Positions 12,001 to 15,000 of a stretch of 46,714 nucleotides of DNA are shown in pieces; position 1 is the stretch's first letter; the number at the start of each line of letters is the position of its first letter. The position numbers are program-made. This stretch comes from Methanothrix sp. (GTDB lineage Archaea > Halobacteriota > Methanosarcinia > Methanotrichales > Methanotrichaceae): NCBI GenBank assembly GCA_037128175.1, contig JBAXWY010000020.1, positions 1-46,714 on the forward strand, given 5' to 3'.

Positions 12001-15000
12001 TCCATGGGAAACTTTCGGAAAATGAGTATGTTCGATTTCCTTTGCTGGATAAAGTGCGGTCTCTCAATCGCCTTCTTGCATTTTACGACATAATGCTACT
12101 CCGTCCTTGCTCAACGCATAAGTCATCTCTCCTCGGGTTGGATGCATTATGACATATCCCAAGCTTATGAGCTTACGCAATGCTTTTTTAACCTCTCGTC
12201 CTGCCTCTGTCTGTCTGCGGGCGAAGGCCTTCTCTGGGACGTGAGCAGACTTGCTCATCTTGCATGCCCTGCAGATGCTGAGCAAAACTGCTCTATCAAA
12301 TTCCATCAGCACACTTAACAGAATATTCTAAATCTATTTAATAGTTTCTAATACAGAGAAAAGGAACTTGAAAATACGGATAAGATATTCCAATATATTG
12401 ATATACTTACAGAACGCTATTAATAAGCATGCAGTCAAAAGCAAGACGTCCTGCAATAGAGAGAGCAAGGGACGCACGGCTGGAGAGGGGCGGCGATACC
12501 GATTATGAGCTATATGAACTGATTAGCGAACACTCTGGACAGGGCGCTTATGAGCTCTCTAAGCTGAATGGCTGGACTGCAGGCCGCACGCACTCATCAA
12601 TATTGCGATTGGAGAAAAAAGGGCTCGTATCTGTGGAGCGTATTGTGCAAGGTGGGAGGACAAAGCTTGTAGTTCGCCCCAGGCCCTGGCAGGAGTTCTT
12701 CACTCCAGAGGAGCTTGAAGAAATGCGCCAGCCCGGATACTTCGAGGAAGTCGAGAAAATGGTGAAGCGAACAGAGGGCTGAAGGTCCGCATAACTGCAC
12801 CCTCTCATTAAGGAGTAATAGATTCTTAAAATAGTAATAATAGATCTCTCGTCATTGCCTTTATGCTGCCTCTTCTGTACATGCTTGTAAAAACATGATT
12901 ACTCGCCAAGGGACGATAGGATTTTCACCTCCACCTTTACCGGCACGGGATACAATAGCTCTGAGCCGATCCTTTCCATGATCTCTTGCAGCATTCGGGC
13001 ATATTCCTCCGCCCGCTCTGCCGGGACCTCCAGCAGAATTTCATCGTGAATGGAGCCGATTATCCTTGCCTCTTCTGAGGATATTTTATCGTAGACCTCG
13101 CACATCACCAGCTTGATGAGATCCGCTCCCGTTCCCTGGCAGGGAGTATTGTACATCTGGAATTTGGAAGCCCTAATTCCGGTTCCAAAGCGCGGCCAGA
13201 TCCTTCTGCGGCCTAAAGCCGTAGCGGTGCAGGTGAGCGGCAGGAAAAAGTATCCCTGAATGCAGTTGTGGAAGTAGTGCAGCACGGTGTAACTCATCTC
13301 TTGAAGCTGCCGCTCCTGCCAAACTCTAACTCCCTCATAAGTTTGGAAGAACCGGGTCTTTGCCTCCTCTGCCTCATCCAGAGACATGAATCTCCCGTAA
13401 TCGGACAAAACCCGCCACTGCAATGTCTTGGCCGATCCGCCGTAGATGAGCAGGAAGTTCATGATCTTCGCCGCCTGACGTTGCTGGTCCGTCACCTGAC
13501 TCATGTCGGCGCCACTGATTTTGCAGGCGGTTAGCCTGTGCAGGTCAACTCCCGCCCGAAATGCTTCCTGCATGGCCCTGTCCCCAGAAAGAAATGCCAT
13601 GATGCGTAGCTCAATCGCAGAGAAATCGGCCTTAACAAACCTCTTCCCGGCCTCTGGCAAGAAGAGCCTCCTTATGGCTGTGGCATCGTCCCCCTTCCTG
13701 GGAATCTGCTGGGCATTGGGATTTTTGGAACTGATTCTGCCGGTGGAGGATGGGATCTGGAAATAATGAGGATGGACCCGGCCATCTTTGGCATGAACAT
13801 GGCTTAGCCAGTTACTCAGAAATGCTAGAAGGTGAGATACATGCCTGTAACGAAGGACCGCTTCGGCAAAAGCACAGCCTGCGGCGGCCAGACCCCTCAA
13901 GATCTCTGCCTTGGTGCTGATTACACCGTAGCCCCGGCTCTTCAAAAAGGCCAAAACATCTTCCTGCCGGTCGGGATTTAGATAATAACTCAGTCTTTTG
14001 CCGTCCTCTGAAACTGTGACGAAACCTTTTCTTCTGGCCTCATCATGCACCGTCCAGACCAGATTGCAGATCTCATTTTCTTCGTCCTCGACTTTTCTTT
14101 TGGCCTGATCAGAGTCCAGATAAATACCCGAGATCTCCATCTCCGCCAGGGAGCAAACGGCTCTAAATTCCAGATCTGCAATCTTCTGCAAGCCGTTTTT
14201 AGCCAGGAGTGCTGCCAGGATGTCGTGAAGCGGTAATAGTACGGCGGATTCTTCTGCAGCTCTCCTTTCCGTCTCATTTTCACCGTCCAGGATAACGCCC
14301 AGATGCCTTTCCGCCAGGGCAGCAAGACTATGATCGGGAATATTCTTCTTCCAGGGATTTTTGGGGGAATGAGAGGGGGTAAGATAATAGTAGCCCGACC
14401 AGCAGATCTCTGAAGCAAGCATGAGGTCGAATAGATTGCGGGCATCCAGCTTTCGATTCTCCGAGGTCCTGATGAAAGCGAGGGCAGTCTTGGCATCGAA
14501 TAAAACTTTCCTGATCCGGATGTTCTCCAGGAGCCCGGCCAAATCGCTCAGAATAGTCTTTCCCAGTTCAAGGCAGTCGGCAATGTAGACGGTATGATTG
14601 GGGAGCGCGAGGGTTATAAGCCTGATTTCATGGCTCAAGGGGTCCGGGCCGGTCTTGAGCAGGTTCAAACCGCAAATCCCAAATTTCTCGATCTCTTGAA
14701 GCGCAGATTCCCATGATTCCGCTGTGGTAATGCAGGTTAACAGAGGGCTGATCGTCATCTCATTTTCAAGAATGTTTCTTCAATTTATATGATGATTGTC
14801 CTCTATCCAAGCCACATGATCCATCGAATAGCTCGATGTCAAGAATAGTTATATCCATTGAAAACTATATAGCTGCAAAGGGGAGAAAAAATGGATCTCT
14901 TTGACCTTCTTGGTAAATTCGCTAATATTGTGCAGCTCATAATGTTCTGCGTGTTTGTTTGGGCGACCGTAACCTTGCTCATAGCCAGAAAGAGGATAGA

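Follow-up and report, generated by a model that had tools for sequence, protein, structure and literature searches.

Which polymerase completes spacer integration is an open question for almost all CRISPR systems, and the evidence so far is genetic, from DNA polymerase I (Pol I) of E. coli, together with what is known of the CAPP primase-polymerases. Pol I, a family-A enzyme, is described as needed for naive as well as primed adaptation and was proposed as the filler of the repeat gaps (Ivancic-Bace et al. 2015, PMC4678826), and the CAPPs, which are encoded together with cas1 and cas2, have been proposed both to fill gaps and to make prespacers (Zabrady et al. 2021, PMC8211822). No paper on a family-A polymerase associated with CRISPR came up in our literature search; the near match was a single sentence in Altae-Tran et al. 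(2023), which links adaptation modules with unspecified “DNA polymerases”, and, going by that sentence, prior art on an association between PolA and adaptation may exist.

Here we describe a family-A polymerase gene, polA, in the CRISPR locus of a Methanothrix genome (contig JBAXWY010000020.1; the whole stretch analysed, 46,714 nt long, is called the window), together with its relatives in other genomes. The reading that we favour, with a probability of roughly 55%, is that a mobile-element replicase has been domesticated as an accessory of CRISPR adaptation, most likely filling the repeat gaps after spacer integration. Two PolA lineages, clades C1 and C2, occur beside spacer-acquisition genes, which suggests a dedicated polymerase for the formation of CRISPR memory. 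The locus in the window, where polA belongs to C1, is composed as follows:

5782-7470, forward strand: Cas4g/Cas1g fusion, adaptation integrase plus Cas4 nuclease (Pfam Cas_Cas1, 5.6e-89, and Cas_Cas4; NCBIfam NF049935, 690.9 bits against a cut-off of 560)
7477-7773, forward strand: Cas2 (Pfam CRISPR_Cas2, 1.5e-13)
8024-11927, forward strand: CRISPR array, 52 near-exact 36-nt repeats ending in ATTGAAAC and one degenerate repeat, spacers of 36-42 nt
12429-12782, forward strand: small ORF of 117 aa between the array trailer and polA, without family match, winged-helix-like in appearance
12899-14758, reverse strand: polA of clade C1, Klenow-like family-A DNA polymerase of 619 aa without a 5' nuclease domain
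14204-14758, reverse strand: the part of polA for the N-terminal 3'-5' exonuclease-like domain, about residues 1-185 (PF01612, 29.3 bits, and alignments), its DEDD residues lost
14891-15442, forward strand: SAVED protein of 183 aa with one transmembrane or hydrophobic N-terminal helix (Pfam SAVED, 1.7e-08; NCBIfam NF033611, 41.2 bits)
17282-17406, reverse strand: relic of a second C1 polA copy (residues 524-568, 91% identical as protein, in-frame TGA)
17651-18454, forward strand: Cas6-like protein (NCBIfam TIGR02165, 75.5 bits against a cut-off of 45, profile positions 248-487 of 492)
18408-18845, forward strand: minimal nucleotidyltransferase, Polbeta/MNT (Pfam PF18765, 1.3e-16)
19282-26108, forward strand: type III-B effector genes cmr1, cas10/cmr2, cmr3, cmr4, cmr5 and cmr6 (Pfam RAMPs, Cas10-Cmr2_palm2, Cmr2_N, Cas_Cmr3, Cas_Cmr5; Cmr1 by TIGR01894)
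26105-28691, forward strand: type III ancillary genes (window annotation based on Pfam and NCBIfam), as the next four lines
26105-27355, forward strand: Card1-type CARF nuclease
27352-27630, forward strand: Csx3
27989-28351, forward strand: MqsA/YgiT-like zinc-finger protein
28362-28691, forward strand: Csx3-like protein

The array is oriented by the ATTGAAAC end of its repeats, which we take to be the 3' handle of Cas6-type processing; its leader side then adjoins cas2 and its trailer faces the 3' end of polA, at a distance of 971 nt. As the initial annotation had it, polA sits between this array and cmr1-6, next to a membrane SAVED protein whose ORF lies 132 nt away. This protein is probably a cyclic-oligonucleotide sensor, and a homologue stands directly upstream of cas4g/cas1g in two of the loci compared below (L033 and L034). 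An 89%-identical copy of the 117-aa ORF occupies the corresponding place next to a clade-C2 polA (L046), and the Cas6-like protein, which is homologous to the C-terminal half of the type I-G protein Csb2, is encoded as the direct divergent neighbour of polA in genomes G020 and G035. The duplication of a 125-nt piece of polA 4.2 kb away, also noticed initially, was recovered (13064-13188 against 17282-17406, 94% identical), and this relic is located where a 2.6-kb segment (14807-17398), which the syntenic G020 locus lacks, has its right edge. An Rfam search of the window returned no match, and a comparison of the 51 spacers of the array with every locus fetched, the PolA-bearing mobile elements among them, gave only chance matches of 16-18 nt. 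Metatranscriptome contigs of 97-477 nt (90-99% identity; three sediment runs from two studies) lie over parts of 12451-14090 and 15156-15903, small ones overlapping the 117-aa ORF, and, as they show neither strand nor level and may stem from DNA carry-over, they are not counted as proof of expression.

The polA ORF is free of stop codons, and residues 273-614 of its product match DNA_pol_A (PF00476) at 7.6e-78 and 262.5 bits, against a Pfam cut-off of 34.3. All three motifs expected of family A are found, in agreement with the first reading of this gene: motif A (D..E) as DFSAIELR, motif B (R..K..F/Y..YG) as RQAAKIMNFLLIYG and motif C (HD) as HDE. Residues 36-165 match DNA_pol_A_exo1 (PF01612; 8.7e-07, 29.3 bits against a cut-off of 23.6), and the NCBIfam Pol I match begins only at profile position 301, so that the 5' nuclease part is missing. 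An AlphaFold model computed from an 81-sequence alignment reached a pLDDT of 94.8 (an earlier one from ten aligned sequences, with a pLDDT of 50, was discarded), and this predicted structure has a full Klenow-like fold, with Foldseek TM-scores of 0.83 to the apicoplast polymerase apPOL and 0.80 to Klenow (1d8y); all of its structural matches are family-A enzymes. By sequence, the top PDB match is again the apicoplast PREX polymerase (7sxl, 2.6e-55), phage polymerases are 25-30% identical, in line with the ~28% previously given, and the PADLOC model RTasPolA was matched with the same E-value as before (1.7e-32, over residues 178-600). From these data we infer that the product is a DNA-dependent family-A DNA polymerase, with its activity predicted. 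Two more specific identities were considered and rejected, namely bacterial DNA polymerase I (PRK05755, 296.6 bits against 720; TIGR00593, 254.4 against 600) and the bifunctional 3'-5' exonuclease/DNA polymerase (PRK14975.1-3, 370.1 bits against an equivalog cut-off of 640; all NCBIfam).

The 3'-5' exonuclease domain ascribed to this protein in the initial annotation is there as a fold, whereas its catalytic residues are gone. Where proofreading enzymes carry DxE in ExoI, NxxxF/YD in ExoII and YxxxD in ExoIII, the alignments show for the window PolA asparagine (N32) instead of aspartate and leucine (L34) instead of glutamate in ExoI, alanine instead of aspartate in ExoII, and arginine and glutamate instead of tyrosine and aspartate in ExoIII. 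PDB chains with N or Q at ExoI are, according to their entry titles, engineered exo-minus mutants. Across the PolA groups compared, the mobile-element group described below has its exonuclease motifs intact, loci L055-L057 have lost them in part, and the window group and C2 have lost them completely. All groups retain the lysine and tyrosine of motif B and, in motifs A and C, the aspartates. The motifs of C2 read DFSAIEMR, NYGTIYGG and HDS, and catalysis in this clade may be altered, given HDS instead of HDE in motif C. Both clades evolve under purifying selection, with dN/dS of 0.12-0.22 in C1 and 0.12-0.25 in C2; for the dead exonuclease domain the ratio is 0.12-0.46 across C1 and C2, and 0.12-0.35 is quoted for the domain of the window PolA. 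Taq and Bst Pol I have a similar vestigial exonuclease domain, and, as in those enzymes, the domain here might have been retained as a structural or docking domain.

As a rule, to our knowledge, archaea do without family-A polymerases. At E<=1e-10, PolA matches were found in 33 of 59 genomes of the genus and in 47 of 104 of the same family; two other families contributed 11 of 134 and 2 of 32 genomes, and the remaining five families sampled (30 genomes) none. These counts come from a genome set different from the one behind the 21 of 36 genus genomes and 2 of 24 genomes of other families given initially. Among the matches outside Methanotrichaceae no member of C1 or C2 was seen. The narrow distribution claimed for this clade thus stands, with its border moved from Methanothrix to the family Methanotrichaceae, to which C1 is confined and within which it spans several GTDB genera. 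C2, all 11 of whose 11 members match PF00476, amounts to 16 loci in 185,579 species genomes searched, every one in Methanotrichaceae. The report that IMG/VR holds no relative needs a small amendment, since a scan with the C1 alignment returned one locus, a distant one with 25% identity. Copies in split form, mentioned already for this clade, are confirmed, C1 genes being split or broken in at least six genomes. Many Cas4g/Cas1g modules of the family stand on contigs, or in genomes, that lack polA, such as those of G000 (contig C32), G017 (two modules, genome 97% complete), G012 (three contigs) and G044 (ten contigs), and with these modules and the several broken copies, polA is dispensable.

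In the phylogeny, C1 is monophyletic (support 1.0) and sister (0.996) to an exonuclease-proficient group, which is located in an integrase/primase-helicase mobile element and whose polA forms an operon with an integrase and a 919-aa DUF3854/DUF927 protein (in L059, a terminase is present as well). C2 is likewise monophyletic (1.0), is 29-36% identical to the window PolA (about 31%), and is not sister to C1, 23 other representatives standing between the two. This separation implies two independent recruitments.

Linkage to CRISPR in other genomes, which could not be checked when the gene was first noted, is strong. It was followed in 40 fetched PolA loci of about 9-20 kb each from Methanotrichaceae and related families, comprising 14 of C1 (the window being extra), 11 of C2 and 15 others. 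The 3' end of polA faces the trailer of an array in 12 of the 14 C1 loci, with the same CRISPR repeat family and the array pointing towards polA, and cas4g/cas1g and/or cas2 are present in 9 of the 14; five further pairs of C1 polA and cas genes on one contig were found. All 11 C2 loci contain cas4g/cas1g, in 10 of them directly adjacent and divergent, at a distance of about 30-200 nt, and in the remaining one on the far side of a 9-repeat array. Neither cas1 nor cas2 lies near any of the other 15 PolAs (five of the mobile-element sister group and ten of other lineages). The co-location of C1 and C2 PolA with cas genes is therefore repeated and lineage-spanning, as expected of accessory cas genes, in related genomes that are non-independent samples. 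The geometry of these loci is constant over several GTDB genera, at polA identities down to 54%.

In C1, polA is convergent with the array at 0.3-1.1 kb and hence not in an operon with the cas genes, and its pairwise identities and those of the neighbouring cas4g/cas1g are poorly correlated (r = 0.28); the two are not co-inherited, which argues against a tight, specific partnership. One genome (G001) carries an intact C1 polA amid transposases and a frameshifted csx3, with neither cas1 nor an array within 9 kb. For C2, the divergence of PolA and that of Cas4g/Cas1g are correlated with r = 0.79, a value that shared species history may also explain.

In the domestication that we favour, an integrative mobile element of Methanotrichaceae would have supplied the ancestral replicase, which now would serve the Cas4g/Cas1g-Cas2 module. 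When this module inserts a prespacer at the leader-proximal repeat, both strands of the 36-nt repeat would become single-stranded gaps; PolA would extend the free 3'-OH ends over these gaps, giving the second copy of the repeat, and host ligase would seal the nicks. Patches of ~36 nt would need no proofreading. As an additional option, PolA could turn single-stranded fragments into duplex prespacers.

The same neighbourhoods can be read as the remains of a mobile element, if elements with exonuclease-proficient PolA insert at, or recombine with, array ends and the leftover polA is kept by linkage with no role in CRISPR. Such insertion may have taken place, as the nearest relatives of C1 are the replicases of the integrase/DUF3854 element, several copies are split or fragmentary (the 125-nt relic of the window included), and in L043 an integrase fragment stands next to the array, some 3 kb away from polA. 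That fragment is, however, the only mobile-element gene found beside polA in the window and the C1 and C2 CRISPR loci, and a leftover would hardly keep a dN/dS of 0.12-0.25 over synonymous divergence of up to ~1.4, the same geometry across genera, the association repeated in a second independent clade, and a decay limited to the exonuclease residues with those of the polymerase kept; we consider this account unlikely. We also think it improbable that polA is an independent defence or counter-element gene which merely shares an island with CRISPR, for example an error-prone replicase copy interfering with PolA-encoding elements, or a DRT-like module. It would fit the RTasPolA match, a locus with many other genes of defence and toxin-antitoxin type (the transmembrane SAVED protein, a HicB-like protein, MNT, the MqsA-like protein, Card1, Csx3), the patchy and dispensable nature of the gene and its intact occurrence in G001 away from cas1 and arrays. 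Yet the genome has no reverse transcriptase, polA occupies a specific position, next to the array trailer or else 30-200 nt away from cas4g/cas1g, and not just any place in the island, and the C2 correlation of 0.79 also speaks against independence, subject to the same possible effect of species history.

Another possibility concerns the template. An exonuclease-less PolA might copy RNA or RNA-DNA into prespacers for the type III-B system, in place of the reverse transcriptase of RT-Cas1; reverse transcriptase activity is known in some family-A polymerases, the system is of type III-B in a genome with no reverse transcriptase anywhere, and the proofreading residues are gone. Against this, we found nothing in the sequence that is specific for RNA templates, the adaptation module, which includes a Cas4 nuclease, belongs to the DNA-acting I-G type, and the glutamate of motif A (IELR/IEMR) indicates the use of dNTPs only and is silent on the template, so we regard RNA-templated capture as very doubtful. 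A bolder version of our own reading, in which PolAs were captured twice independently from archaeal elements as dedicated subunits of CRISPR memory that write the repeat copy and, in the boldest form, also turn RNA into DNA prespacers for type III-B systems without reverse transcriptase, is quite unlikely. Finally, polA could encode an ordinary host enzyme for chromosome repair that has nothing to do with CRISPR; such an enzyme would have the Klenow-like fold of repair polymerases and could have a vestigial exonuclease domain like that of Taq and Bst Pol I. Since no more than 47 of the 104 genomes of the family have the gene, none of the matches seen in other families belongs to C1 or C2, polA lies almost always inside CRISPR loci and its product scores below the NCBIfam Pol I cut-offs, this explanation is poorly supported and highly improbable.

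If the favoured reading is true, this PolA becomes a defined, purifiable candidate for the completion of spacer integration in archaea, and two separate recruitments would strengthen the case. Under domestication, the replicase of an element would have become an accessory of host immunity with a stepwise loss of proofreading. A compact, naturally exo-minus Klenow-like enzyme, possibly tuned to short gaps next to an integrase, could also be of use for in vitro spacer acquisition or recording.

Compared with the described systems, the C2 loci, with polA and cas4g/cas1g as divergent neighbours, recall casposons, in which a Cas1-family integrase and an element-derived DNA polymerase stand side by side. 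Casposons, however, combine PolB with a Cas1-solo casposase and have no arrays, whereas here the polymerase is of family A and a Cas4g/Cas1g above the curated cut-off is followed by cas2 and a long array; by these features, with no search made for terminal inverted repeats, they are not casposons. The RTasPolA model of PADLOC likewise describes a PolA-like protein in a defence context, and its match to the window PolA spans the generic polymerase domain only. Assignment to the DRT systems fails for want of the reverse transcriptase partner, whose absence had been remarked on initially: RVT_1 has no match in the whole genome (99.8% complete; control genomes were matched), and there is no reverse transcriptase among the window ORFs. 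The RT-Cas1 fusions of types III and VI are alike in that an RNA-targeting CRISPR system has recruited a nucleic-acid polymerase for adaptation; they differ in that their reverse transcriptases are of the group-II-intron type and fused to Cas1, while the window PolA is a separate family-A gene in a genome with no RT domain. With apPOL (PDB 7sxl, 9qsc), the best match both by sequence and by structure at 27% identity, it has in common an exonuclease and a polymerase domain without a 5' nuclease. ApPOL, however, is an organelle replicase that belongs to a primase-helicase-polymerase polyprotein and, in its natural form, has proofreading, so that the two are related as distant family-A members.

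The closest functional comparisons are those with which we began. E. coli Pol I, as described in the work cited above, is of family A as well, its polymerase activity is needed in acquisition, and it was proposed as the gap filler at the duplicated repeat; it is, however, a housekeeping enzyme encoded away from CRISPR, with a 5' nuclease and active proofreading, whereas the window PolA lies in a CRISPR locus, carries no 5' nuclease domain and is without the residues for proofreading. The CAPPs, according to their description, resemble it in the polymerase gene beside cas1/cas2 of type III systems, in the proposed filling of repeat gaps and/or making of prespacers, and in being accessory in some systems only. 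They belong to the archaeo-eukaryotic primase (Prim-Pol) superfamily, can prime and have been studied biochemically, while the window PolA, known from sequence, is of family A and has no primase domain; only family-A domains and family-A fold matches were found in it, in place of a Prim-Pol/AEP domain, and it is not a CAPP. By analogy, a gap-filling role of this archaeal PolA would parallel that of both E. coli Pol I and the CAPP primase-polymerases.

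The polymerase gene studied here (polA) converges with a CRISPR array in a locus laid out as follows:

5782-7470: cas4g/cas1g (NCBIfam NF049935, 690.9 bits against a cut-off of 560)
7477-7773: cas2
8024-11927: CRISPR array, 52 repeats of 36 nt with the end ATTGAAAC, plus one degenerate copy
between array and polA: two small ORFs
12899-14758, minus strand: polA
14891-15442: transmembrane-SAVED (TM-SAVED) protein, 183 aa
16406-16801: MarR-like HTH gene
16874-17149: HicB/UPF0150-like gene
17282-17406: polA relic, between the HicB-like and Cas6-like genes
17651-18454: Cas6-like protein, homologue of the C-terminal half of Csb2
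18408-18845: MNT nucleotidyltransferase
right of the MNT gene: cmr1-6, then Card1, Csx3, MqsA-like and Csx3-like genes

The sole Cas6-like gene of this type III-B locus (its ORF overlaps that of MNT by 47 nt) is a homologue of type I-G Csb2 at half the size; the adaptation module (Cas4g/Cas1g) belongs to the I-G type too, so that the locus is an I-G/III-B hybrid. Two SNase-like genes (staphylococcal nuclease, E about 1e-8; 2337-2936 and 30387-31064, both minus strand) flank the entire CRISPR-cas region, and the window's right end (46044-46460) carries a piece of a Mutator-family transposase, matching profile positions 248-377 of 379.

As the initial annotation had stated, polA is a family-A polymerase ORF beside the CRISPR array, with 619 codons uninterrupted by a stop (Pfam DNA_pol_A, 7.6e-78; DNA_pol_A_exo1, 8.7e-07, 29.3 bits against a cut-off of 23.6), and its matches to PADLOC RTasPolA (1.7e-32) and to the apicoplast polymerase 7sxl as top PDB sequence (2.6e-55) were both reproduced. 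The top NCBIfam model, PRK14975.1-3, gives 370 bits, below its cut-off of 640, and the Pol I equivalogs also stay below cut-off, with matches starting beyond the 5' nuclease part of the profile. The AlphaFold2 model (pLDDT 94.8, from an 81-sequence alignment) groups in Foldseek with apPOL (TM 0.83), Klenow (0.80) and the Aquifex and Bst Pol I structures.

When 34 full-length PolAs from the fetched loci (described below) were aligned, every one retained the aspartates of motifs A and C and, in motif B, the lysine and tyrosine, and the 3'-5' exonuclease previously assigned to the window protein stood as a domain match only, its ExoI-III catalytic residues being replaced. The window's group (L032-L037) has substitutions at each of these positions: D and E of ExoI, D of ExoII, Y and D of ExoIII. 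The window PolA itself has N32 and L34 (ExoI), A (ExoII) and R and E (ExoIII); in PDB chains, N or Q at ExoI marks engineered exo-minus mutants, according to the entry titles. PolAs from other genera (L055-L057) retain the ExoI DxE and have lost ExoII and ExoIII, and a subgroup at 44-48% identity (L040, L042, L044, L058, L059) keeps all three exonuclease motifs. The second, non-sister PolA clade of the family (C2) has YLHL at ExoI, YAARAC at ExoIII and HDS in place of HDE at motif C, and has a tyrosine at the position of Klenow F762. The window PolA is thus a Klenow-like enzyme whose polymerase residues are intact and whose proofreading is dead.

For the context of polA elsewhere, 40 loci around PolA matches (each about 9 to 20 kb) were fetched and scored by tblastn with the window proteins and by repeat searches.

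Neighbourhoods of polA by lineage (C1, the window's clade; related genomes are included and are not independent samples)
C1, 54-93% identical: 14 loci; cas4g/cas1g and/or cas2 in 9; same-family repeats at the polA 3' end, with the array directed at polA, in 12/14
C2, 29-36% identical, about 590 aa: 11 loci; cas4g/cas1g and/or cas2 in 11; cas4g/cas1g is the immediate divergent neighbour in 10 (gap about 30-200 nt) and lies beyond a 9-repeat array in 1
Mobile-element subgroup (integrase/DUF3854 element): 5 loci; cas4g/cas1g and/or cas2 in 0
Other PolA lineages: 10 loci; cas4g/cas1g and/or cas2 in 0

The argument rests chiefly on there being two separate clades, on the spread over several genera and on the controls, which establish a position-specific linkage of polA to the adaptation module and array; for scale, with three cas1 loci in a 2.96-Mb genome, an estimated ~2% of the DNA lies within 10 kb of cas1. 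Of the 11 C2 loci, 4 likewise have trailer repeats facing polA at its 3' end. Among the short contigs, L010 and L014 have repeats at their ends and L011-L013 have csx3 and an MqsA-like gene adjoining polA, and polA shares a contig with cas4g/cas1g in G026:C390, G015:C54, G024:C235, G014:C45 and G049:C17. One CRISPR module can be flanked by both clades, as in L064 (genome G147), in which cas4g/cas1g has a C2 polA upstream and the C-terminal piece of a C1 polA (16243-16443) lies just past the array.

The two C1 loci lacking trailer repeats are L038, where the contig ends inside polA, and L037 (G001:C1:1928600-1948500), a decayed CRISPR locus that holds an intact polA. On the 3' side of this polA are three transposase genes (IS3-, DDE_Tnp_1- and IS110-type), on its 5' side a frameshifted csx3, an MqsA-like gene and a HicB-like gene; an MNT gene is retained too. 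A PolD large subunit gene lies 5 kb away. Homologues of cas4g/cas1g occur in 63/105 family genomes, many of them lacking polA, either on that contig or genome-wide (e.g. G017, G012, G044, G000:C32). Together with the split or broken C1 copies in at least six genomes and the intact copy in G001 with no cas1 or array nearby, this indicates that polA behaves as a dispensable accessory, like many CRISPR ancillary genes.

PolA matches (E<=1e-10) occur in 33/59 genus genomes, a different set from the one in which 21/36 had been counted. A class-level sample gave matches in 61/301 genomes (47/104 in the same family, 11/134 and 2/32 in two others, 0 among 30 genomes of five further families). At E<=1e-30 a set of 1.84 billion representative proteins gave 3733 matches, of which only three lie above 45% identity, namely two fragments and a protein of the mobile-element type; a C2-alignment pattern scan of 185,579 species genomes returned 16 loci, titled Methanothrix, Methanosaeta, Methanocrinis, Methanotrichaceae and, once, uncultured Methanosarcinales. 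Identity to phage polymerases is 25-30%, in agreement with the ~28% first reported; the reported absence from IMG/VR gives way to one distant locus at 25% identity.

In a FastTree LG+gamma tree of near-full-length database hits to the query and the locus sequences (147 sequences, 554 columns), C1 is monophyletic (support 1.0) and its sister (0.996) is the exonuclease-proficient subgroup; C2 is also monophyletic (1.0), with 23 other representatives between it and C1 and with a Methanothrix MAG protein annotated as hypothetical as its nearest representative, its deeper placement being provisional because the tree is limited to best hits of the C1 query. The exonuclease-proficient PolA ends a conserved block of tyrosine integrase, small ORFs, a 919-931-aa DUF3854 protein (presumably a primase-helicase) and a small ORF (L040:3150-10894, L042, L044, L058 and L059; in L059 the DUF3854 protein also contains DUF927 and a terminase large subunit gene is next door). 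This block is an integrated element or provirus of Methanotrichaceae with its own replication module. Neither the window nor the flanks of polA in the C1 and C2 CRISPR loci contain any of the element genes, except for an integrase fragment about 3 kb from polA in L043. The most parsimonious history has CRISPR loci capturing a polymerase gene twice, independently. Methanothrix also has PolA homologues with long N-terminal extensions in open frames, 27-28% identical (L050:7215-10808, 1197 aa; L051:8004-10436, 810 aa), that of L050 adjoining an integrase of the type carried by the integrated element.

Nei-Gojobori dN/dS (pairs with dS <1.5) is 0.12-0.22 in C1 and 0.12-0.25 in C2, and by part 0.12-0.46 in the exonuclease-like N-terminal region and 0.09-0.25 in the polymerase; polA is therefore under purifying selection, the proteins being maintained with their inactivated domain included. 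PolA and the neighbouring Cas4g/Cas1g diverge together in C2 (r = 0.79, 36 pairs), whereas in C1 they are uncoupled (r = 0.28, 21 pairs), two Cas4g/Cas1g variants only about 58% identical to each other accompanying C1 polA. Evidently, modules are reshuffled across the array while polA remains at the trailer.

The duplicated 125-nt piece of polA noted earlier is real (13064-13188 and 17282-17406, 94% identical), and the relic encodes PolA residues 524-568 (91% identity) with an internal TGA. In the syntenic locus of G020 (L032) the Cas6-like gene directly adjoins polA; relative to it the window has a 2.6-kb insertion (14807-17398) with TM-SAVED, unassigned small ORFs, the MarR-like and HicB/UPF0150-like genes and, at its right edge, the relic. 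The segment appears to have arisen by recombination between two CRISPR modules, each with a polA, which would make the relic a leftover of that event. A 22-nt near-palindrome occurs twice (21/22 identical), directly after the polA stop (12875-12896) and 42 nt upstream of the MarR-like gene (16343-16364), and might serve one of the small winged-helix proteins as its operator. The 117-aa ORF at 12429-12782 has no family match; an 89%-identical copy lies between array and C2 polA in L046, and small metatranscriptome contigs cover this ORF best of the whole stretch in all three runs.

We favour, with a probability of about 0.55, a mobile-element replicase domesticated as a CRISPR adaptation accessory, most likely as a repeat-gap filler. 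PolA would fill the single-stranded repeat gaps left after Cas1-Cas2 integration, and might also make duplex prespacers, by analogy with two precedents: E. coli Pol I, which naive and primed adaptation both require and which is the proposed gap filler there (PMC4678826), and the CAPP primase-polymerases, encoded with cas1/cas2, for which both gap filling and prespacer making were proposed (PMC8211822). A whole-genome search found no reverse transcriptase, which excludes membership in the DRT systems and also permits a bolder reading, in which PolA itself would copy RNA; no sequence evidence for RNA copying was found.

According to the CAPP authors, CRISPR-specific replicases were previously undescribed (PMC8211822). 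Full-text literature searches turned up no account of a family-A polymerase associated with CRISPR. In the passages considered, Shah et al. 2018 list a PrimPol 'adaptation polymerase' and no PolA, and the preprint of Shmakov et al. mentions none in its main text. The main text of Altae-Tran et al. mentions adaptation modules linked with 'DNA polymerases' and leaves their family unnamed; the supplement may include this PolA family. We therefore rate the CRISPR-linked family-A PolA as a new variant among the known CRISPR adaptation-associated polymerases.
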